This document shows, one piece after another, positions 1 through 61,981 of a stretch of 64,000 bases of DNA (its first letter is position 1; every line of letters begins with the position of its first letter). The translations under genes were made by a program, and so were the position numbers. The notes beneath the pieces were generated by a model. That model did not search any database. It was given only the letters and a program-made list of their open reading frames with translations, and was not told the origin of the DNA. Location: assembly GCF_988242995.1 (NCBI RefSeq), contig NZ_OZ547043.1. One strand, given 5' to 3'.

Positions 1-195
1 ATCCAGTGAAGACACGAGGGGATTTTCTCCGCTTCCTTCTGCCTGGCGGCGGGCGATTTCACCGCGCATGGCGGTTACGATAAATCCGGCATTGCTTTCA
101 CCGTCCAGCTTAACGGATTCCATCCCTTGCATAACATCTAGTGGGACTCTGACAGTTGTCAGTTGTGATTTTGCGTTTTTGTTAGCCGTTGCCAT
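1..195 (-). CDS. Ribbon-helix-helix (Arc/CopG-like) putative repressor, 3'-truncated by window start
   Basis: Reverse-strand ORF starting at ATG 195-193 with AGGAG RBS; translation MATANKNAKSQLTTVRVPLDVMQGMESVKLDGESNAGFIVTAMRGEIARRQ... fits the RHH pattern (N-terminal beta-strand TVRVP then two helices). Not in the ORF track because it runs off the window. Confidence 0.5.
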   Translation of the reverse strand, partial: MATANKNAKSQLTTVRVPLDVMQGMESVKLDGESNAGFIVTAMRGEIARRQAEGSGENPLVSSLD

Positions 196-261
196 TTCTG
201 AAACTCCTAATCATCGGTGTGTTTCAGTATACACAAAAAAAGAAATACAAAAAGCCTTGAC

Positions 262-294
262 GTGTGTTTCATGCGCTCATAACATGAAACACAC
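262..294. promoter_or_regulatory. Perfect inverted repeat (gtgtgtttcatg N9 catgaaacacac) overlapping a TTGACG-N17-TAACAT-like promoter; candidate operator
   Basis: Read directly from sequence; lies between the divergent RHH gene and the rightward small-gene/primase operon. Confidence 0.45.
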
Positions 295-575
295 CGAAAG
301 GATTGTTGAAATACAAAGAGCAACGCCCCGCAGTGCTGGGAACACATACGGGGCGTCTAACCAACAACGTAAACTAGGAGCCGTTATGGTTGCTGTAAAT
401 CATATACCACACCTTGTACACACACAAACGGCCTTTGTGTGGCGTTTTCTGGCACTGAGTGCCGGAGAATCTCAAATCATCCACGTAACCGCCTGGACGG
501 AACGCGAAGCGCGTAGCCGTTGCCCGTCCGGTTGTGTTGCTGTATTCGCTGCAAAAATCCGCCAGGGAGTGAGTC

Positions 576-761
576 ATGCTTAAAACCTTCCGTGTATTTG
601 CCCGAGCTGTTAACCCAATAGGCCACACAATTGGTATCGCTCAGAATGTGAAGGCTGTTAATGTTCAGACGGCTATTGCTGCGGTGAGAAGCGAATCATC
701 AGAATATGGCTTATCACAAGTCATTATTTCAGCAGTGTATGAATTAAAAGAGGTGCATTAA
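576..761 (+). CDS. Hypothetical small protein (61 aa), first gene of primase operon
   Basis: ORF with GGGAG RBS; stop overlaps next start (TAATG). Confidence 0.4.
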   Translation: MLKTFRVFARAVNPIGHTIGIAQNVKAVNVQTAIAAVRSESSEYGLSQVIISAVYELKEVH

Positions 762-952
762 TGCAGGAAATCACATTACACGAAGCCGCTGAACGTGCGC
801 ACCAGACAGAAATTATTTGCCGCCTTCTTGAGGTATATCCGAACAAAATTACAGATGCTGATATATCCGCGCTGGCGAGCCTACTGGCGCGCCTTTCGGG
901 AAGTGTCGCTAGTTTCCTCATTGAGGAAGAAAGTAAGCTGGTGGGGGATTAA
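761..952 (+). CDS. Hypothetical small protein (63 aa)
   Basis: ORF with AAAGAGG RBS, translationally coupled to flanking genes. Confidence 0.45.
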   Translation: MQEITLHEAAERAHQTEIICRLLEVYPNKITDADISALASLLARLSGSVASFLIEEESKLVGD

Positions 953-1174
953 ATGAATACAGAACGGGAAGTCTTTTTTAAATTGTTAGCATGTGCAGAA
1001 AGTTCATTAACTTTAAATAATTCAGCAAAAGCAATATTAAATATGTGGCTTGATTGCATAAATGACAATGAAGATGCAAATATTGCTTATGGCCTGTTGT
1101 CACTTATTGATGAATCAGCAGAAAAACTCAATGACGCAATAAATAGTGCCCTGCTATCAAATAAGTCGAGTTAA
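953..1174 (+). CDS. Hypothetical small protein (73 aa)
   Basis: ORF starts immediately after previous stop; GGGGGA RBS. Confidence 0.45.
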   Translation: MNTEREVFFKLLACAESSLTLNNSAKAILNMWLDCINDNEDANIAYGLLSLIDESAEKLNDAINSALLSNKSS

Positions 1175-1191
1175 GTCGAGGAATAAATAAT

Positions 1192-1491
1192 ATGGAAATG
1201 AAAAATTCTGGCTTTATTGCCAGCGGCCCCGCTCGGCCTGAATTTATGAACGGCGATATTTACCGCGATAAATACGGCGGCACGGTAACGATTAAAGGCG
1301 TGGCAGAACGGCGCATCACTTACCGCCGTGAGGGGTATAGCTATGACTGCGTGATGCCTGTTTATCAGTTCCGGCGTGATTTTTCCCTGGTATATGCCGC
1401 ACCCCGCAGTAAGCCCATCAGCAGGGAAAAAGCGCGGGGAAACATCCAGAAAATGAAAAGCATGATTAACGCATTCAGGGGCAAAAAATGA
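1192..1491 (+). CDS. Hypothetical protein (99 aa)
   Basis: ORF with GAGGAA RBS; stop overlaps primase start (ATGA). Confidence 0.45.
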   Translation: MEMKNSGFIASGPARPEFMNGDIYRDKYGGTVTIKGVAERRITYRREGYSYDCVMPVYQFRRDFSLVYAAPRSKPISREKARGNIQKMKSMINAFRGKK

Positions 1492-3239
1492 AACTGGCAC
1501 CGAACTTAAAAAAACAGCCACGCGACAGACTGACAGAGGTAATCATCTTTGCAGGTAGTGATGCGTGGAGCCATGCGAAAGAGTGGCGGGAATGGGCGGG
1601 TAAACATATTGCCGCCGACGATGTGCCGCCTGTCGTGCTGGCTGATGAGCAACTGAAAAATATCACCGATTACCGGATCATTGATGAAGATCGTCAGTGT
1701 GTGCGTGTTTACCGCGCAGGACATATCACAGAGCACAGCATGACGCAGATTGTTACGTTACTGGCTGTGGCTGGAGTGAAGACCGTACACGAATACGCGG
1801 GGATTACTGACACCAGCCCAGTGGATTTATCCGAGCAGTTGCCGCGACTCAAAGAGGAATGCGAGCGTGGGGAAAGTCTGGTGCTTAATCTTCCGACGAA
1901 GCAAAAGGCGCAACTTTCACAGATGGCAGACAGTGAACGTGCACAACTACTTGCCGATCGCTTTGATGGTGTGTGTGTTCATGCAGAAAGTGAAATCGTC
2001 CACGTATGGCGCGGCGGGGTATGGTGTCCGGTCAGCACAATGGAGCTGAGCCGCGAAATGGTGGCGATCTATTCAGAGCACAGGGCCACGTTCAGCAAAC
2101 GTGTAATCAATAACGCCGTGGAAGCGTTAAAAGTTATTGCCGACCCCATGGGGGAGCCGTCCGGTGATTTGCTACCGTTCACTAATGGTGTGCTTAACCT
2201 GAAAACGGGGGAATTTTCTCCGCACTCGCCGGAGCACTGGAGCACCACGCACAATGGCATTGAGTACACGCCACCAGTAGCAGGGGAAAACATCCGCGAT
2301 AATGCGCCAAATTTCCATAAATGGCTTGAACATGCTGCAAGAAAAGACCCGCGCAAGATGATGCGTATATGTGCCGCGTTATACATGATTATGGCGAACC
2401 GCTACGACTGGCAGATGTTCATTGAGGCCACCGGAGACGGGGGAAGCGGTAAGAGTACATTTACCCATATTGCCACCCTGCTTGCTGGCAAACAGAACAC
2501 CGTAAGCGCGGAGATGACATCACTCGATGATGCAGGAGGGCGCGCGCAGGTTGTCGGGAGTCGTCTTATCGTCCTTGCCGATCAGCCGAAATATACGGGG
2601 GAAGGCACGGGCATCAAGAAAATCACGGGAGGCGATCCCGTTGAAATTAACCCGAAATATGAGAAGCGATTCACGACGATAATAAGGGCGGTGGTACTGG
2701 CAACCAATAACGACCCGATGATCTTTACCGAACGGGCCGGAGGTGTGTCACGCCGTCGGGTGATTTTCCGGTTCGACAACATTGTAAGGGAGGACGAAAA
2801 AGACAAGGAATTACCGGAAAAGATAGCGGCAGAAATCCCCGTAATTATCCGCCGCTTGCTGGCTAATTTTGCTGACCCTGAAAAGGCACGGGCTTTATTA
2901 CTGGAACAGCGTGACGGTGATGAAGCTCTGGCAATAAAGCAGCAAACGGATCCGGTTGTTGAGCTTTGCGCGGCGCTGGAGTTTCTGGAGGAAGCTCGTG
3001 GGCTAATGATGGGCGGTGGTGGTGACACCGTGAAGTACACGACCAGAAACAGCCTTTACCGTGTCTATATGGCCTTCATGGCATACACAGGAAAGGGGAA
3101 ATGTTTGAGCGTGAATGAGTTCGGAAAGGCTATGAGGTCAGCGGCGAAAGTTTACGGATATGAATATATTACGCGAAAAGTTAAGGGAGTCACGCAGACC
3201 AACGCAACGACTACTGATGATTGCGATGCGTTTTTATAA
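1488..3239 (+). CDS. Replication primase-helicase of satellite/PICI type (P4 alpha-like, D5-family P-loop NTPase)
   Basis: 583-aa ORF with Walker A motif GDGGSGKST in the central domain; followed directly by an iteron cluster, as in P4 alpha/crr. Confidence 0.7.
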   Translation: MKLAPNLKKQPRDRLTEVIIFAGSDAWSHAKEWREWAGKHIAADDVPPVVLADEQLKNITDYRIIDEDRQCVRVYRAGHITEHSMTQIVTLLAVAGVKTVHEYAGITDTSPVDLSEQLPRLKEECERGESLVLNLPTKQKAQLSQMADSERAQLLADRFDGVCVHAESEIVHVWRGGVWCPVSTMELSREMVAIYSEHRATFSKRVINNAVEALKVIADPMGEPSGDLLPFTNGVLNLKTGEFSPHSPEHWSTTHNGIEYTPPVAGENIRDNAPNFHKWLEHAARKDPRKMMRICAALYMIMANRYDWQMFIEATGDGGSGKSTFTHIATLLAGKQNTVSAEMTSLDDAGGRAQVVGSRLIVLADQPKYTGEGTGIKKITGGDPVEINPKYEKRFTTIIRAVVLATNNDPMIFTERAGGVSRRRVIFRFDNIVREDEKDKELPEKIAAEIPVIIRRLLANFADPEKARALLLEQRDGDEALAIKQQTDPVVELCAALEFLEEARGLMMGGGGDTVKYTTRNSLYRVYMAFMAYTGKGKCLSVNEFGKAMRSAAKVYGYEYITRKVKGVTQTNATTTDDCDAFL

Positions 3240-3249
3240 AAAATGGCAA

Positions 3250-3485
3250 TGGTTATCTACCTTGTCTACCTGACTGAAAGAAAATACTTTTATTTCAATG
3301 TATTAATGCAGGTAGATAACTATTTTTCACTGTCTACCTGTTATCTACCTTATCTACCCATTTTTGTAGACAGGTAAGGAGACGGGTAGAGATGAGGTAG
3401 ACAGCTATTTGGGGCTGTCTACCTCCCTGAAACCCGCGCCATTACTGGCCTGATAACTAATCAGGTAGACAAGGTAGACAAGGTG
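3250..3485. repeat. Iteron cluster (about 11 copies of 8-bp GGTAGACA / TGTCTACC motif in both orientations); putative replication origin
   Basis: Seen directly: cttgtctacc, caggtagataac, ctgtctacctgttatctaccttatctaccc, gtagacaggt, gaggtagacagc, ggctgtctacctcc, caggtagacaaggtagacaagg. Confidence 0.7.
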
Positions 3486-3528
3486 GTGGTGCACAAAAAA
3501 CTTTTTAAACGAGGGGGTAAAAATAAAA

Positions 3529-3786
3529 ATGCACACATCAGGAAAACTGAACAAACATATAAAGCCACATTACCGCGCCCTTGATATGGCTGAACACTGG
3601 CTAAGGGTGGCGATTAAGGCAATAGACCGCAACGCCGGGGAAGGATACGCGAAAGCACATCCCGAACTGATAAGCGCATTCATGACAACGGCGGCTGCAA
3701 ACTTTGCCACGCTGACCGAACGGGAGATTGCTGAAGCGGAGGAAGTGACAACAATCAATATTAAGTCCGGAGAGCAGGCAGCATGA
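3529..3786 (+). CDS. Hypothetical protein (85 aa)
   Basis: ORF with GGGGGT RBS; stop overlaps next start. Confidence 0.4.
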   Translation: MHTSGKLNKHIKPHYRALDMAEHWLRVAIKAIDRNAGEGYAKAHPELISAFMTTAAANFATLTEREIAEAEEVTTINIKSGEQAA

Positions 3787-4232
3787 CGGCGCAAATATCA
3801 GTTTACGGGCGGTTGGTGGACGACCCGCAGACAAAACAGACCAGCAAGGGCACCCCCATGACGCTGGCGCGTATGGCGGTATCACTGCCCTGCAGTCAGT
3901 CGGATGACGGTCTGGCGACGTTGTGGTTATCTGTCCTGGCGTTTGGCAGACAAGCCGACGCGCTGGCAAAGCATCACAAAGGCGAACTCCTGAGCGTGGC
4001 GGGTAACATGCAGATGAGCCAGTGGACTGGACAGAACGGCGAAACGCGGCAGGGCTGGCAGGTTATCGCAGACAGCGTAATCAGTGCGCGATCGGTGCGA
4101 CCGGGCGGCAAAAAAGGCCAACAGGGGCAGGCTACTGACGCACTGAACAGAGCAAAACAACAGGCAGATCAGCAAGGAAGCCAGCCACCAGAGGGAGATA
4201 ATGAGCAATGGGGAGATGATATCCCGTTTTAA
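3783..4232 (+). CDS. Divergent single-stranded DNA-binding (SSB-like, OB-fold) protein with acidic C-terminal DDIPF tip
   Basis: 149-aa ORF; OB-fold-like core, Gly/Gln-rich linker, and C-terminus ...EGDNEQWGDDIPF matching the canonical SSB partner-binding tail. Confidence 0.6.
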   Translation: MTAQISVYGRLVDDPQTKQTSKGTPMTLARMAVSLPCSQSDDGLATLWLSVLAFGRQADALAKHHKGELLSVAGNMQMSQWTGQNGETRQGWQVIADSVISARSVRPGGKKGQQGQATDALNRAKQQADQQGSQPPEGDNEQWGDDIPF

Positions 4233-4248
4233 ATATTGCCAATAAAAA

Positions 4249-4276
4249 AAGCCGGAAAAAATAAATTTTCCGGCAT
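4249..4276. terminator. Stem-loop gccggaaaa/ttttccggc after SSB-like gene; orientation ambiguous
   Basis: 9-bp inverted repeat with A-run upstream and T-run within/after the stem. Confidence 0.3.
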
Positions 4277-4448
4277 GCTACATAAATCCCGACCAAAGGG
4301 AGTGAAGATATTAACACTAATTGTCCGCACTGAAGTTGTCACCCCAAAACTTTATACAACATTGCACTCGGTTGCATGTGTTCGCATGACAAATATCGGT
4401 GATAGCATATATCCACAATTATTTTTAATGAATGCAAAGAGGATGCGT

Positions 4449-5489
4449 ATGGTTGATTTATATTCGCCTACTCAGCTTGTACAGGTAGTTAATGCTGTAG
4501 ATGTACAAAAACAACTAAATGCGTTATTTACCAGTTTGTTTTTTACTCGCTCGGTAATGTTTGAATCGCGCGATATTATTCTTGATACAATCGACGATCC
4601 AAATATCCCAATTGCAGCGTTTTGTTCTCCTATGGTGGGTAGTAAAGTTTCACGTGACGAAGGGTACGAATCAAAAACAATTCGTCCAGGCTATATGAAG
4701 CCGAAAAGCAGCATTGATCCAAATAAGTTAGCTGTGCGCCCTGCTGGTGTGTCACCTGAGCAATACAATGCTTTTGGGGCGCGTAATATTAAAGTTAAAC
4801 AGGCGATTGTAAATCAGGCTAAAGCTATTCGTGCACGTATTGAATGGCTTGCTGTTCAGGCAATCACAACGGGGAAAAATATCATTGAGGGCGATGGTAT
4901 TGAACGTTATGAGCTGGACTGGAATATAAAACCACAAAATATCATCACTCAGTCTGGCGGTACTGAGTGGTCAGGTAAGGATAAAGAAACTTTTGATCCA
5001 AATGATGATATTGAGAGCTACGCAGAATTTAGTGAGGGCGTCACTAATATCATCATTATGGGTGGTAATGTATGGAAGAAATACCGTTCATTCAGAGCGA
5101 TAAAAGAGGCTTTGGATACCCGTCGTGGTTCTAATTCCGAACTGGAAACGGCCCTTAAAGACCTTGGTGATTCGGTGAGTTTTAAAGGGTATATGGGCGA
5201 TGTTGCGATTGTTGTTTACAGCGGGCGTTATACCGACGAGGACGGAACAGAAAAACATTTCCTTGATCCTGATTTGATGGTGCTTGGCAATACGGCTCTT
5301 CAGGGGATTGTCGCCTATGGCGGTATTCAGGATCCGGAGCTAATCCGAATGGGGCTGACTAAAGCCGAACTTGCACCGAAAAACTATATTGTGCCTGGTG
5401 ATCCGGCTATTGAATATGTGCAGACACATTCAGCACCACAGCCAATACCGGCCCGCATCAATCGTTTTGTTACCGTTCGCATTGGCTAA
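4449..5489 (+). CDS. Major capsid protein, lambda gpE family (divergent paralog, about 50 percent identity to lambda E over the C-terminal half)
   Basis: Start chosen at MVDLYSPTQL with AAGAGGA RBS (the track ORF begins upstream at 4236). Shares blocks ITQSGGTEWS, LDTRRGSNSELETA, GDVAIVVYSG with lambda E. Confidence 0.8.
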   Translation: MVDLYSPTQLVQVVNAVDVQKQLNALFTSLFFTRSVMFESRDIILDTIDDPNIPIAAFCSPMVGSKVSRDEGYESKTIRPGYMKPKSSIDPNKLAVRPAGVSPEQYNAFGARNIKVKQAIVNQAKAIRARIEWLAVQAITTGKNIIEGDGIERYELDWNIKPQNIITQSGGTEWSGKDKETFDPNDDIESYAEFSEGVTNIIIMGGNVWKKYRSFRAIKEALDTRRGSNSELETALKDLGDSVSFKGYMGDVAIVVYSGRYTDEDGTEKHFLDPDLMVLGNTALQGIVAYGGIQDPELIRMGLTKAELAPKNYIVPGDPAIEYVQTHSAPQPIPARINRFVTVRIG

Positions 5490-5498
5490 GGGGGAGCA

Positions 5499-5840
5499 AT
5501 GGCTACTCATTACACTGAACTCATGGCTGGCACTGAAGCACTGGTGACTACGCTGGGGATATTTTCAGCTAATAAAGGGGTAATTCCTGCATTTACGCCA
5601 CTGATGCAGGAAGATGCAACAGGTGCACTGGTGGTATGGGATGGTTCGAGCGTAGGTAAAGCGGTTTATGTTTCCGCTGTACAAATCGACACCGCGAAAA
5701 AAACACAGGCTCAGGTCTATAAGACAGGTGTCTTAAATGTTGATGCTCTGAACTGGCCTGAGTCTGTTAAAGAACTGTCAGTAAAGGTTGCAGCGTTTGT
5801 TGGCTCAGGTATTTCTGTTCAGCCGCTGGCTCGTGTGTAA
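5499..5840 (+). CDS. Head decoration protein, lambda gpD family
   Basis: 113-aa ORF; TPLMQEDATGALVVWDGSS...AAFVGSGISVQ aligns with lambda D TPLMLDTSSRKLVAWDGTT...TAFAGTAISIV. Confidence 0.7.
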   Translation: MATHYTELMAGTEALVTTLGIFSANKGVIPAFTPLMQEDATGALVVWDGSSVGKAVYVSAVQIDTAKKTQAQVYKTGVLNVDALNWPESVKELSVKVAAFVGSGISVQPLARV

Positions 5841-5851
5841 AGGGGGATACA

Positions 5852-6235
5852 ATGCAGAATGATTACAATGACCTTAAGCCAATTGCCGAAATGATGTACC
5901 CGAATCCAGCTGTAGAGGAATTAAAAGCTATCGCTGACAAAATGTGTTTAAGCGAGCGCCTTGTTGATATGAATCAGGTGATGGAAATTACAACCCTGAG
6001 TCGTCGTACACTGCTAAACCTTGAGGCTAGTGGAGAGTTCCCGGAGCGTGTGCAGGTTACGGAAGGGCGTAAGGCCTGGTATTTAAGTGAAGTGATCGAC
6101 TGGATAAATAATATTCCTCGCGCTTCTGAATATTGCCGCGTACCTGTCCCAAAAAAGCCAGATGCGGCGCTATGCCTCAAGATTGAGCGTGTACGCCGCA
6201 ATGCACGGGATGGTCGCTATAAGCTGATTGGTTGA
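5852..6235 (+). CDS. AlpA/excisionase-like HTH regulator
   Basis: 127-aa ORF; central segment MNQVMEITTLSRRTLLNLEASGEFPERVQVTEGRKAWYLSEVIDWINN resembles AlpA-family phage regulators. Confidence 0.55.
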   Translation: MQNDYNDLKPIAEMMYPNPAVEELKAIADKMCLSERLVDMNQVMEITTLSRRTLLNLEASGEFPERVQVTEGRKAWYLSEVIDWINNIPRASEYCRVPVPKKPDAALCLKIERVRRNARDGRYKLIG

Positions 6236-6397
6236 TGAAATTAGGGCCCGCTCTGGCTGGCGGGTCCTTTCCGGTGATCCAGAACGTTACGGGGCGTCAG
6301 GCGCGCAGATTCTTGCTATTTATGACAATTTTCTGCGATTTGCCGTTTCCGTTCTTCTTCCTCGTAACTTAGTGTTTTTACTAGAAATACCCTCTAA

Positions 6398-6448
6398 AAA
6401 GAAAGGAAATGACAGGTGCTGAAAACAGGCTTTTGGGTCTCCGTCATT
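6398..6448. terminator. Stem-loop (aaaggaaatgac ... gtcatttccttt) followed by T-rich tract
   Basis: 12-bp inverted repeat read directly, after the alpA-like gene. Confidence 0.4.
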
Positions 6449-6687
6449 TCCTTTCTCATTTTTATCTAAAAGTAAGCATCGAGGCCACCCCAAATGCTTA
6501 TAGAGGTTATTGTGTCACTATGCGTACTGTTCAGGATTTAAAGTAGCAAGACATCTAGTTGCTTGCAGTTTTGGCGAATGATGTGAGGTTCTCTATAACA
6601 GATAATGTAACAAGTTACTGATATATTCTGTTATGGTTGACTTTAAATTTTGTTGCTCCTTCAATGAATTATTGAGGGGTAAAAATT

Positions 6688-6713
6688 AGGCGTGATAAGA
6701 ATCGATCACGCCT
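6688..6713 (-). terminator. Rho-independent terminator for the 438-aa gene
   Basis: aggcgtgat/atcacgcct 9-bp stem immediately 3' of the minus-strand stop, followed on that strand by AATTTTTA. Confidence 0.45.
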
Positions 6714-6718
6714 ATTGT

Positions 6719-8035
6719 TTATCTTGAAGAAATTTTAGGCAGGCTTTTTAAAAATAAATCTTTATTTCTACTTGCATCAGTTAAAAGTGTTAGGAATATT
6801 TTATCTGTAGGAGTGCATGTGCTCTTGTTTAACAGTAATTCACCAAGTTTCTGTAATCGAGAGAATTGCCCATCCTCTTGGATTCTGTGACGAAGTGTAC
6901 TATCATTTTTAATAACATCAACAAATGCAGAAACCATGTTAATATCAAAGTGTTCAAACATTTCCAATATTAAAGGTGCAGCCCCATTTGAATAAAAATT
7001 CTTCCTTCCATACTGATAGCTGAAACCACGATGGCCAACATAAGTTTTTGTAATGGCTGAAACAAATTCAACAATATTATCTTCAGGGACGAAACTCGAG
7101 AATGGTAATAATTGGGTTACGATTTTTTCCTCTTCTGACCAATTATCTAAAGACTCGGTGAGTTTATTAATGAGAGGCTCAATAATAACTTTTCGGGATG
7201 CAGGGCTAATATACATCAGTCCATCTACCAATAGTATGAATTGTTGTGCCTTCTCTATCTTATTGTTGTTTCCTGAAACTAAATACTTGTCAAATTGTTG
7301 GCCGACTTTACGTCGGTCGTCTTTTGAAAGTAATGTCCATAAAATAGGTGCGCAAAATTCAATGTTGTTTCTGAGTTCACTTGATATATTGGATGAGCAG
7401 TATGTGCCAAAAAAACGAGAGGATAATTCACTGATATAAATTGCAGGTAGATCTGAAAAGGCTTGCTTAACTGCCAGACTATTTTTATTAAATGTTGCCG
7501 AATCCATTTCTGAAAGATATGTAGTTATATCTATGATGGCTGGTGGAAACTCTTTAGAAAGAACGTATTTATTACAATCATTAATCAGGTTCACTACTTT
7601 GATTAAATCAGGGTCGCTACTTTGTGGATGTCCACCAAATAGATTCCTGGTTTCTCTAGCTTGTTGTAATAGTTTCTGACCTTCTCGATCGATAACTCCT
7701 ATTTTAAATGCTCCATCTATTAAATCAAAGTCGCTCACATAATCCTGAAAATCTTCATACGTTTTAATTTCTTTTTTTTGTTTACACTCTTTGTTGAATA
7801 GATCTAGGCTACGATGAATTATCTTTTGACGTAAATCATCAACTACAGCATTCCAGTAAGCAGTGATGGCACTTCTATAACCTTTTACAGGAAGAACTCT
7901 TATTGCTTCTGAAATATATGGGCAGTCAACTACATCATGCCTCACAGTTGAGAGCGCAGTTTGTAACAATGTAACTTCTGTAGAGTCTAGTGGAGTTGGC
8001 TGCACTAAATGAGAACTTATCTCTGTACCCTTCAT
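6719..8035 (-). CDS. 438-aa hypothetical protein with N-terminal HEPN-like Rx5H motif (R130-N-L-F-G-G-H136); candidate abortive-infection/defence protein
   Basis: Long ORF on the opposite strand in a visibly AT-rich 2-kb block with its own upstream region and terminator; no similarity to phage structural or housekeeping proteins that I recognise. Confidence 0.5.
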   Translation of the reverse strand: MKGTEISSHLVQPTPLDSTEVTLLQTALSTVRHDVVDCPYISEAIRVLPVKGYRSAITAYWNAVVDDLRQKIIHRSLDLFNKECKQKKEIKTYEDFQDYVSDFDLIDGAFKIGVIDREGQKLLQQARETRNLFGGHPQSSDPDLIKVVNLINDCNKYVLSKEFPPAIIDITTYLSEMDSATFNKNSLAVKQAFSDLPAIYISELSSRFFGTYCSSNISSELRNNIEFCAPILWTLLSKDDRRKVGQQFDKYLVSGNNNKIEKAQQFILLVDGLMYISPASRKVIIEPLINKLTESLDNWSEEEKIVTQLLPFSSFVPEDNIVEFVSAITKTYVGHRGFSYQYGRKNFYSNGAAPLILEMFEHFDINMVSAFVDVIKNDSTLRHRIQEDGQFSRLQKLGELLLNKSTCTPTDKIFLTLLTDASRNKDLFLKSLPKISSR

Positions 8036-8391
8036 TTCAGGATTTTCCTATTCTTTTCCATTTTTCTACTCTATTGAATTTGAAAAAGATATCAAGTTCG
8101 TTCTTGCCAGTTTTAAGTGGAAAATTTGATGTTACCTTATTGAGATAAGGCAGTTCTCTATAACCTATTGTTATTAATTATTTTTATTTTTTTCCAATTC
8201 AGATGTTTAGGGCTAAGAAGTTAAGTGAGAGTTCACAGCAAAACTGCTTCTAGTTCCTCACCGAGGAGCAAAAGGTTAAGACAGCGTACTTTGTATTGCA
8301 CAATGTATTGCAGAACCTTCTTTCGAAAGCTACAACAATCAATTTTATATTGAAAATTCAATCATATCCTTTCGATATTGACTCATATAAC

Positions 8392-9179
8392 CCAAGCATG
8401 AGGTGAATCCGCAGATGACCCTGCGTCGCCTGCCGGATGAAGATCCGCAGAATCTGGCGGACCCGGCTTACCGCCGCCGTCGCATCATTATGCAGAACAT
8501 GCGTGACGAAGAGCTGGCCATTGCCCAGGTCGAAGAGATGCAGGCAGTTTCTGCCGTGCTTAAGGGCAAATACACCATGACCGGTGAAGCTTTCGATCCG
8601 GTTGAGGTGGATATGGGCCGCAGTGCGGCCAACAACATCACGCAGTCCGGCGGCACGGAGTGGAGCAAGCGTGACAAGTCCACGTATGACCCGACCGACG
8701 ATATCGAAGCCTACGCGCTGAACGCCAGCGGAGTGGTGAATATCATCGTGTTTGATCCGAAAGGCTGGGTGCTGTTCCGTTCCTTCAAAGCCGTCAAGGA
8801 GAAGCTGGATACTCGTCGCGGCTCTCATTCCGAGCTGGAGACAGCGGTGAAAGACCTGGGCAAAGCGGTGTCCTACAAGGGGATGTATGGCGATGTGGCC
8901 ATCGTCGTGTATTCCGGACAGTACGTGGAAAACGGCGTCAAAAAGAACTTCCTGCCGGACAACACGATGGTGCTGGGGAACACTCAGGCACGCGGTCTGC
9001 GCACCTATGGCTGCATTCAGGATGCGGACGCACAGCGCGAAGGCATTAACGCCTCTGCCCGTTACCCGAAAAACTGGGTGACCACCGGCGATCCGGCGCG
9101 TGAGTTCACCATGATTCAGTCAGCACCGCTGATGCTGCTGGCTGATCCTGATGAGTTCGTGTCTGTACAACTGGCGTAA
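8392..9179 (+). pseudogene. E: Major capsid gene E, 5'-truncated (about the first 96 codons missing)
   Basis: Translation from ...PKHEVNPQMTLRRLPDEDPQNLADPAYRRRR... to ...DPDEFVSVQLA is near-identical to lambda gpE residues about 97-341; upstream sequence is unrelated AT-rich DNA. Confidence 0.85.
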
Positions 9180-10661: not shown

Positions 10662-11372
10662 GTGCACAGAAAACCCCCAGCTAGGCTGGGGGTTCCGGAA
10701 AGCTTTCAGCTTTGAGCCAGTTATTAAAACCCCTTTTGATTTGTTAAAACACCTTGCGGTCTGGCAACTGCAAGTGTCAAACAAGAAATCAAAAGGGGGT
10801 CCCAATGGGGAACGAAAAGAGCTTAGCGCACACCCGATGGAACTGTAAATATCACATAGTTTTTGCGCCAAAATACCGAAGACAGGTGTTCTACAGAGAG
10901 AAGCGTAGAGCAATAGGCAGTATTTTGAGAAAGCTGTGTGAGTGGAAAAGCGTACGGATTCTGGAAGCTGAATGCTGTGCAGATCATATCCATATGCTTG
11001 TGGAGATCCCGCCCAAAATGAGCGTATCCGGGTTTATGGGATATCTGAAAGGGAAAAGCAGTCTGATGCTTTACGAGCAGTTTGGTGATTTGAAATTCAA
11101 ATACAGGAACAGGGAGTTCTGGTGCAGAGGGTACTACGTCGATACAGTGGGTAAGAACACGGCGAAGATACAGGATTACATAAAGCACCAGCTTGAAGAG
11201 GATAAAATGGGAGAGCAGTTATCGATTCCCTATCCGGGCAGCCCGTTTACGGGCCGTAAGTAACGAAGTTGGATGCAAATGTCAGATCGTGTGCGCCTGT
11301 TAGGGCGCGGCTGGTAAGAGAGCCTTATAGGCGCATTTGAAAAACCTCCGGCTATGCCGGAGGATATTTATT
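10662..11372 (+). mobile_element. IS200 (IS200/IS605 family), about 711 bp, with terminal hairpins
   Basis: Contains the Y1 transposase gene; left-end hairpin cccccagctaggctggggg and right-end hairpin ctccggctatgccggag; boundaries inferred from interruption of lambda U. Confidence 0.8.
10805..11263 (+). CDS. tnpA: IS200 transposase TnpA (Y1/HUH)
   Basis: MGNEKSLAHTRWNCKYHIVFAPKYRRQVFY...HIHMLVEIPPK... matches IS200 TnpA (152 aa). Confidence 0.9.
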   Translation: MGNEKSLAHTRWNCKYHIVFAPKYRRQVFYREKRRAIGSILRKLCEWKSVRILEAECCADHIHMLVEIPPKMSVSGFMGYLKGKSSLMLYEQFGDLKFKYRNREFWCRGYYVDTVGKNTAKIQDYIKHQLEEDKMGEQLSIPYPGSPFTGRK

Positions 11373-59966: not shown

Positions 59967-60409
59967 TTATGTTGGCGTTTTCTATTCAGTATAGAAGTGG
60001 GAGCGACTGGGCGAGATGCGGAAGTTCTGGAATGTTTCTTTTTTTTGGTGATGGTGAACTGATTGTGACTGAAGAAGTTTGGCTACTTCTGCAATGTGAC
60101 AAGTTATGGCAGAGCTGGCTGGTGGCGAAGAATTTTGACGATTGAGGCATGCAGAAAAAAACGGGTTCAGCTTCAGTTGATCAAATGAGGAGTGAGAAGT
60201 CCGAAACAGGACTCGCTGTATAAATAAACAGCTATTTTGCTGAGGAAGGGTAAGATAACGGCGGGTGCCTGAAGCTTTCCGGTTTCAGGTTTACTCTGAG
60301 GTCTGGAAAGATGAAGCCCCAGGAGATATTTCTATCAACCCTGGGGCTGCCACTCCAAACCCAAACAATTTGGATGGTAGTCCCTTCTTCGCATGGAGGC
60401 AATATAAAC

Positions 60410-60562
60410 ATGCTGACGAAATATGCCCTTGCGGCAGTCATAGTGCTGTGTTTGACGGTGCTGGGATTTACGCTTCTGGTCGGAGACTCGCTGTGTGAGT
60501 TTACGGTGAAGGAACGTAATATTGAGTTTAAGGCTGTTCTCGCTTACGAACCGAAGAAGTAG
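60410..60562 (+). CDS. hokE: Hok-family toxin (50 aa), copy 1
   Basis: [50 protein letters not shown]; upstream in-frame mok-like extension from 60311. Confidence 0.8.
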
Positions 60563-60912
60563 CCGTTGTGCGGGGAGTAATCCCCGCATATCCGGTTGTC
60601 AGGTCAGGGTGGTAAGGCACCTGTTTTACACTTTCGCCCGCGGTCAGCAATGGCTGCGGGCGATTTCGTTTTACGAGCAATAACGAGTGTTGCCAACAGA
60701 AGTCCGAAACAGGATTTACTGTATAAATAAACAGTTATTTTGCTAAGGAAGGGTAAGATAACAGCGGGTGCCTGAAGCTTTCCGGTTTCAGGTTAACTCT
60801 GAGGTCTGGAAAGATGAAGCCCCAGGAGATATTTCTATCAATCCTGGGGCTGCCACTCCGAACCTCAACAACTCGGATGGTAGTCCCTTCTTCGCATGGA
60901 GGCAATATAAAC

Positions 60913-61065
60913 ATGCTGACGAAATATGCCCTTGTGGCAGTCATAGTGCTGTGTTTAACGGTGCTGGGATTTACGCTTCTGGTCCGCGACTCGCTGTGTG
61001 AGTTTACGGTAAAGGAACGTAATATTGAGTTTAAGGCTGTTCTCGCTTACGAACCGAAGAAGTAG
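60913..61065 (+). CDS. hokE: Hok-family toxin (50 aa), copy 2
   Basis: [50 protein letters not shown]; upstream mok-like extension from 60814. Confidence 0.8.
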
Positions 61066-61807: not shown

Positions 61808-61981
61808 GTCGACCATATTAGAGAATGATGACAAACGCAAAACTGCCTGATGCGCTACGCTTATCAGGCCTACGTGGTCCTGCAATGTATTGAATTGGCA
61901 AGATTTTTGTAGGCCGGATAAGGCATTCACGCCACATCCGGCATGAATTACGCGCACTTTGTCAACAATCTGACGTTAGCA

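Follow-up and report, generated by a model that had tools for sequence, protein, structure and literature searches.

[quoted passage not shown] We address both questions for the window, meaning the whole stretch of 64,000 nucleotides that was analysed. Exactly as the preliminary description had read it, the open reading frame (ORF) at 3783..4232 (+) codes for 149 aa ending in GDDIPF; it starts with ATG, and the C-terminus of its product reads ...NEQWGDDIPF. In a near-identical locus, L001, the same gene is named 'single-stranded DNA-binding protein' by RefSeq (WP_001710062.1). The gene and the parts of its product are listed below.

3783..4232 (stop codon included), + strand: ssb, 149-aa SSB-family protein (profiles, AlphaFold, Foldseek, RefSeq name in near-identical L001)
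3783..4082, + strand: predicted OB-fold ssDNA-binding domain, residues 1-100 (AlphaFold, Foldseek, alignments)
4083..4211, + strand: linker, residues 101-143, Gln/Gly/Lys-rich, with low model confidence (AlphaFold)
4212..4229, + strand: tip GDDIPF, residues 144-149 (ORF translation, subfamily alignment)

Standard profiles recognized the ssb product as an SSB. PF00436 (Pfam SSB), its sole Pfam match, scored 57.1 bits over residues 4-99 against a gathering score of 26, TIGR00621 (NCBIfam) scored 67.2 bits against a cutoff of 53.95, and phrog_44 (ssDNA-binding protein, PHROG) matched at E 2e-37. A sequence search of the PDB returned SSBs only, the best being that of Thermotoga maritima (1z9f, E 4e-11), with the E. 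coli SSB entries at E ~1e-4 to 4e-4; by PDB sequence match the protein is therefore nearer to the Thermotoga SSB (E 4e-11) than to E. coli SSB (E 4e-4). The narrower models for the F-type plasmid SSB subfamily (PRK13732; 19.3 bits, cutoff 265) and the E. coli-type chromosomal subfamily (PRK09010; 21.3 bits, cutoff 260) scored below their cutoffs. An AlphaFold2 model based on a 95-sequence alignment had pLDDT values of 93-98 for residues 1-100, with the strand order of an OB barrel and an alpha-helix at residues 55-62, and the best 50 PDB matches in Foldseek were all bacterial SSB OB domains (TM 0.65-0.82, target-normalised). Structure prediction, which had been proposed as a check on the OB-fold-like core, thus returned an OB fold with confidence, in agreement with the profiles. 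A convergent tail on a non-SSB scaffold was rejected because the OB core is homologous to those of SSBs. These sequence and model data indicate that the ssb product is a true bacterial-type SSB and a predicted ssDNA binder. It is a homologue and not the 'mimic' it had first been called, since its architecture of OB domain, linker and tip is the normal one for the family.

The protein had also been called highly divergent. Divergent it is, with 23% identity over 98 residues to E. coli SSB (EcSSB; P0AGE0), but 'highly' overstates the case, as standard profiles score above their curated cutoffs. In EcSSB, residues W40, W54, F60 and W88 are the aromatics that stack on ssDNA. W48, F54 and W81 of the satellite protein align with EcSSB W54, F60 and W88, and W40 has no equivalent, so that three of the four stacking aromatics are present. 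Across subfamily alignments A1 and A2, F54 is invariant and W48 is conserved in at least 90% of sequences, and W81 is invariant or nearly so in the subfamily. Relative to EcSSB, the protein has a shorter L23 loop and carries Leu in place of H55. SSBs of this family bind ssDNA cooperatively as homotetramers or as dimers of chains with two OB folds. The positions of EcSSB K7, Y78 and E80, which we take to be tetramer interface residues, align with Q4, S71 and A73. Given these replacements at the presumed interface, the satellite SSB probably forms its own oligomers and does not mix with host SSB.

Beyond the OB domain, the order of linker and then acidic tip that typifies the SSB family was found: pLDDT falls to 47-67 over residues 101-149, and the chain ends in WGDDIPF. 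The tip follows the canonical pattern of an aromatic residue, then x-D-x-[IL]-P-F; the aromatic is W143 here and F or Y in relatives. D145, P148 and F149 are invariant in alignment A2, the subfamily consensus being PFDDxIPF. Among the 120 nearest cluster representatives, at least 106 terminate in [ILV]PF, most commonly as GDNIPF, GDDIPF or GDGIPF. Between ssb copies 62-98% identical in protein, dN/dS was 0.05-0.22, and the gene is under purifying selection. Together, the tip counts and the dN/dS values place the SSB assignment and the tip far beyond chance. Like EcSSB (P0AGE0), the protein combines an OB fold, equivalents of W54/F60/W88, a disordered linker and an aromatic-x-D-D-I-P-F tip; it differs from EcSSB in length (149 vs 178 aa) and in its linker of ~40 residues, which is Gln/Lys-rich vs Gly/Gln/Pro.

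ssb is carried by a helper-embedded Gram-negative phage-inducible chromosomal island (PICI) of the 11capE type, which interrupts a lambda-like prophage in its major capsid gene. The window is E. coli chromosomal DNA, and its first 9 kb are 99.3-99.7% identical to several complete E. coli genomes, L001 among them at 99.3%. The window begins inside the element, and attL, int and the HTH/AlpA gene were seen only in L001, where the gene order is integrase, HTH regulator, Icd-like, DUF4222, 'DNA primase family protein', hypothetical and SSB, followed by major capsid, head decoration, AlpA-like regulator and an opposite-strand 438-aa ORF. Fragments encoding the N- and C-terminal parts of the prophage major capsid protein flank the L001 element, the 5' fragment lying at L001 9061-9306. 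The element's features in the window are as follows.

1488..3239, + strand: satellite replication initiator 'pri' (D5_N 58 bits, DUF5906 40 bits, phrog_864 E 3e-161)
3250..3485, no strand assigned: predicted satellite origin of replication (iterons, AT-rich stretch)
3529..3786, + strand: 85-aa ORF of unknown function (phrog_1231 E 3e-48)
4251..4274, no strand assigned: GC-rich hairpin directly 3' of ssb (terminator scan and sequence)
4449-5489, + strand: satellite lambda-E-like major capsid gene (Phage_cap_E 142 bits; L001 RefSeq coordinates)
5499-5840, + strand: satellite D-like head decoration gene (HDPD 56 bits; L001 RefSeq coordinates)
5852..6235, + strand: AlpA-family regulator (Phage_AlpA 35.8 bits; phrog_2790 E 1e-49)
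6719-8035, - strand: 438-aa ORF in the right-hand cargo slot (phrog_27609, unknown function, E 2e-188)
8389..8398, no strand assigned: attR core AACCCAAGCA, the right end of the satellite (L001 attL vs window attR)
8403-9179: 3' part of the interrupted prophage capsid gene, directly past attR

Joining attL of L001 to attR of the window restores a lambda-E-like ...GYVKPKHEVNPQMT... sequence. Through L001, att sites in a lambda-E-like capsid gene, a 10-bp core, int and alpA are found together, as in the 11capE type, and the 10-bp attR core of the window matches the block of identity that Tommasini, Mageeney & Williams (2023, PMC10111431) describe for helper-embedded PICIs of this type. The satellite, at window positions 1-8398, brings its own capsid and head-decoration genes, a configuration already known (PMC10111431). 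Such a satellite within a capsid gene is a more remarkable feature of this DNA than its SSB. For the satellite capsid gene, mechanical ORF calling gave a TTG start at 4236 (417 aa) and RefSeq a start at 4449 (346 aa); the shorter form looks right, because the Pfam capsid-E match starts at residue 83 of the long form. The 438-aa ORF at 6719-8035 had no match in Pfam, NCBIfam or PADLOC, and the feature lists of the same 9-kb region in related elements have DUF262, HEPN or DUF2971 proteins instead, which suggests that the right-hand cargo slot is a variable hotspot, possibly for defence genes.

Within the satellite, ssb belongs to the replication module. In the pri product, D5_N and an SF3 helicase (DUF5906) are joined at the C-terminus by an origin-binding domain of the P4-alpha type, with PDB matches to 7ola (E 5e-15) and to the P4 alpha C-terminal domain (1ka8, E 2e-7). 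Residues 1-150 gave no match to a primase catalytic domain, which makes dependence on host DnaG plausible; pri may be a helicase-initiator that relies on host priming. The 290-bp gap between pri and the 85-aa ORF is dense in iterons: 11 exact copies (TCTACCY / RGGTAGA), in both orientations, lie at 3256-3478 and make up 11 of the 15 TCTACCY sites in the window. An AT-rich stretch at ~3200-3350 (32-34% GC) overlaps the left part of this field. Gram-negative PICI origins lie 3' of pri, with iteron sets flanking an AT-rich stretch (Fillol-Salom et al. 2018, PMC6092414). The predicted origin of the window matches these in position and components and differs in arrangement, in that only one iteron pair lies to the left of the AT-rich stretch and a strict layout of two flanking sets was not seen.

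ssb lies 300 bp downstream of the iteron origin. A GGAG Shine-Dalgarno sequence stands 9 nt 5' of its ATG, which overlaps the TGA of the preceding 85-aa ORF (ATGA at 3783-3786) and thereby suggests translational coupling. A scan of 3150-4650 gave no sigma-70-like promoter sites; a promoter of its own was accordingly rejected for ssb, which is most simply co-transcribed with pri. The hairpin at 4251-4274 has an A-run 5' and no T-run 3' on the plus strand, and received a terminator score only for the minus strand; it may mark a boundary between the replication and late modules or act as a block to antisense transcription. The position of ssb downstream of pri and the origin in a unidirectional operon, characteristic of PICI replication modules, was common to L001, L002, L003, L004 and L006 (listed below). 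SSB, Primase and DUF5906 have been filed under 'Replication' because they co-localise with mapped origins (PMC10111431).

Could the 85-aa ORF be a partner of the SSB? It adjoins ssb in L001, L002 and L006, and its AlphaFold model is just a helical hairpin (pLDDT 66), too weak to support a fold comparison. Its 164 homologues are all called 'hypothetical', the family is confined to Escherichia, Shigella and Citrobacter, and no Pfam, NCBIfam or PADLOC match was found. In L004 the small-ORF slot before ssb holds an unrelated ORF (7702-8004; 16% identity), and in L003 there is no ORF. The partner role was rejected on these grounds: no profile match, homologues of Escherichia type, and a slot that is empty in L003 and filled by an unrelated ORF in L004.

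Of 5,426 complete E. coli genomes, 1,789 contain the 704-bp segment comprising the 85-aa ORF and ssb, among them the one with the model PICI EcCICFT073. A single genome holds the segment in as many as six places, and nearly all occurrences are chromosomal. The surrounding 9 kb were matched in 3,653 genomes vs the 1,789 with the ssb pair, so that about half lacked the pair. In the sampled contexts the order was initiator, origin gap, optional small ORF and ssb, and four initiator types precede ssb: D5_N/DUF5906, RepA-family helicase, DUF927 and P4-primase. More distant SSB relatives (35-50% identity) also lie in small integrative elements (L007 and L008). Besides L001, the contexts were these.

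L002: E. coli 042 PICI in tqsA; the initiator is a RepA-family helicase
L003: PICI of the capsid-forming type, lying within the terL gene of a prophage; the initiator is a DUF927 protein and the small ORF is absent
L004: degraded element; the initiator is a P4-family primase and the small ORF is an unrelated one
L006: model PICI EcCICFT073; same pri type, same 85-aa ORF, SSB 75% identical
L007: metagenome contig (14.4 kb); unit of ~9.6 kb with integrase, SSB of this subfamily, AAA_25 helicase and Dam
L008: more distant enterobacterial element beside chromosomal genes; large initiator, SSB, PerC, KilA-N

In L007 the ~9.6-kb gene set occurs in a head-to-tail repeat, consistent with an excised circular or concatemeric small element. 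Elsewhere the clade is scarce. Of 72,556 plasmid records, 51 matched it; ~10 of these reach at least 60% identity, and they include a 4.9-Mb record filed as a plasmid. A plasmid origin was rejected on this count. A tblastn search of 50,697 phage records gave matches at 24-33% identity only, and a phage origin was likewise rejected, there being no relative above ~33% identity. The SSB had been described as element-encoded, and so it is. The proposal that it could serve the element's own replication is probably right too, since in every context examined ssb comes directly after the satellite's initiator and iteron origin.

We consider it likely that the protein is an accessory replication SSB, linking satellite ssDNA to host replisome proteins through its host-type tip. 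Partners of the EcSSB tip include the Pol III chi subunit, DnaG primase, PriA, RecQ and ExoI. Upon induction, ssb would be transcribed together with pri, the initiator would bind the iterons, and its SF3 helicase would unwind the origin. The satellite SSB would then coat the exposed ssDNA, and its ...W-G-D-D-I-P-F tip, like that of EcSSB, would recruit host SSB-interacting proteins (DnaG primase, Pol III chi, PriA and others), by which a foreign, non-DnaB helicase could be coupled to the host replisome. The binding of these host proteins is something we infer from the identity of the motif. A generic, host-directed function is favoured over pairing with a specific initiator, since the same clade, with its host-motif tail, accompanies four initiator types.

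Several points bear on how much the satellite depends on such a function. The genes reported to be essential for PICI induction and transfer are int, alpA and pri, and pri with ori from EcCICFT073 sustains plasmid replication in DH5alpha, apparently with ssb absent (PMC10111431, PMC6092414). With this essential set, replication from pri-ori alone and about half of the genomes lacking the ssb pair, the role in replication is probably accessory and ssb probably not essential. The satellite SSB is probably a dosage or robustness factor while satellite and helper replicate simultaneously and share the host SSB pool. Counted against the replication reading are that host SSB already bears the same tip, that an equivalent of W40 is absent and that the L23 loop is shorter. 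A search of the accessible literature turned up no experimental work on the function of any PICI SSB; the one relevant item was how PMC10111431 categorises the gene.

Other explanations share parts of this evidence. The preliminary description had raised competition with host SSB for partners, which is possible and would follow generically from the common tip motif. Extended to partner titration or interference, the idea is that the satellite SSB competes with host SSB for partners or ssDNA and so handicaps the helper or the host in replication and repair, for example by damping SOS or RecA loading, to the satellite's gain. In favour of it, the host-type tip is conserved, ssb is accessory and not essential for replication, the protein probably oligomerises apart from host SSB (judging from the presumed interface residues), and PICIs are known to interfere with helpers (PMC6092414). 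Nonetheless, a place in the replication module beside the origin fits a replication role more simply, lambda-type helpers need the same host machinery so that both would suffer, and neither a PADLOC match nor a phenotype reported in the literature speaks for interference; we regard this reading as unlikely. Defence or counter-defence, in which the SSB would shield satellite or helper ssDNA from ssDNA- or SSB-sensing systems, or trigger them, strikes us as very unlikely. The clade is satellite-specific, with no phage record above ~33% identity and few in plasmids, and phage SSBs are reported to activate several defence systems, namely Retron-Eco8, Hna, AbpAB, DARNA and DRT10 of E. coli. This idea is, however, pure analogy for a protein with full replicative SSB architecture, whose gene lies outside the variable cargo slot where PICIs carry defence genes. 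Neither the SSB nor the 85-aa ORF nor the 438-aa cargo ORF matched any PADLOC-DB family at E <= 0.01, and a defence annotation of ssb was rejected on that result.

Tips of EcSSB also recruit RecO, RecQ, RecJ and similar proteins, which is established knowledge and would suit an SSB that supports recombination-dependent or rolling-circle replication, and with it the concatemers for cos packaging into helper capsids, instead of origin firing. Packaging of E. coli PICIs does use concatemers and capsids of full size (PMC6092414), but no recombinase or annealing protein is encoded beside ssb and sequence data cannot separate it from the replication role; we hold it to be doubtful. A similarly slim chance attaches to the broader idea that the clade is a tool against helper or host, capturing SSB-interacting proteins for satellite DNA or hiding ssDNA from SSB-sensing immunity. 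The capture version presupposes that the divergent OB core bears a tip of the host type and stays out of mixed assemblies with host SSB, and either version, if true, would explain why the same SSB accompanies four unrelated initiators and has no close phage relative. That ssb is a decaying passenger gene without function is barely credible: it is not essential for PICI transfer (PMC10111431) and is absent from many related elements, but its frame is intact with dN/dS of 0.05-0.22 across copies 62-98% identical, its DNA-binding residues and tip are conserved, and its position is kept across differing initiators. This selection signal effectively refutes a pseudogene or passenger, and the candidate was rejected.

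The accessory replication SSB that we prefer has its closest counterpart in the SSB of EcCICFT073 (WP_000126698.1) and in the 11capE-type PICIs (PMC10111431), which are of the same clade (75% amino acid identity) and the same satellite family. The EcCICFT073 protein occupies the same place after pri and the origin, follows the same 85-aa ORF and has the same kind of GDDIPF tip; the window's linker is 13 aa longer, and the window's element lies in a prophage capsid gene whereas EcCICFT073 lies beside phoQ on the chromosome. A 13-aa linker segment (KGQQGQATDALNR-like; residues 110-122, window ~4110-4148), predicted to be helical with low confidence, is found in the window, L003 and L004 copies but not in those of EcCICFT073 and E. 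coli 042.

Among other mobile elements, F-plasmid-type SSBs (PRK13732) are likewise a second, element-borne SSB in the cell with a host-type tip, but plasmid SSBs lie in leading regions for ssDNA entry and the satellite SSB lies beside a theta-type iteron origin. The CcPol-paired SSBs of SCCmec and Gram-positive elements resemble it as SSBs in the replication module of a small integrative element (PMC10061031). Those SSBs have element-specific C-terminal extensions, predicted to bind the cognate polymerase (PMC10061031), whereas the PICI SSB has retained the generic tip of the host protein, and four unrelated types of initiator accompany it. The satellite SSB has no sequence relationship to T4 gp32 or T7 gp2.5, its structural matches being all bacterial-type, and has in common with them that it is an ssDNA-binding protein with an acidic C-terminal tail. 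In T4 gp32 and T7 gp2.5 this tail recruits partners.

Public annotation and one paper (PMC10111431) already cover the protein with its name and family, the type of satellite and the placement in the replication zone. The gene matters little as it stands, being an SSB with a correct annotation in a kind of phage satellite that has been described before. A third of complete E. coli genomes nevertheless carry this satellite-restricted SSB clade, and a modest question follows: minimal replication from pri-ori apparently does without ssb, yet purifying selection acts on the gene and several unrelated initiators are found with it. Candidate gains for the satellite are robustness under limiting host SSB, coupling of the helicase to DnaG and Pol III, or an edge over the helper phage.

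A search of Rfam found no RNA element in 1-8500, even at E <= 0.1. Farther along the window, the Hfq-binding sRNA STnc490 was found at 10672-10795 (+), within the prophage head-tail region, and the chromosomal part contained tandem sok antitoxin RNAs (hok/sok-type) at 60263-60418 and 60766-60921 (+) as well as the ES036 sRNA at 61866-61907 (-).
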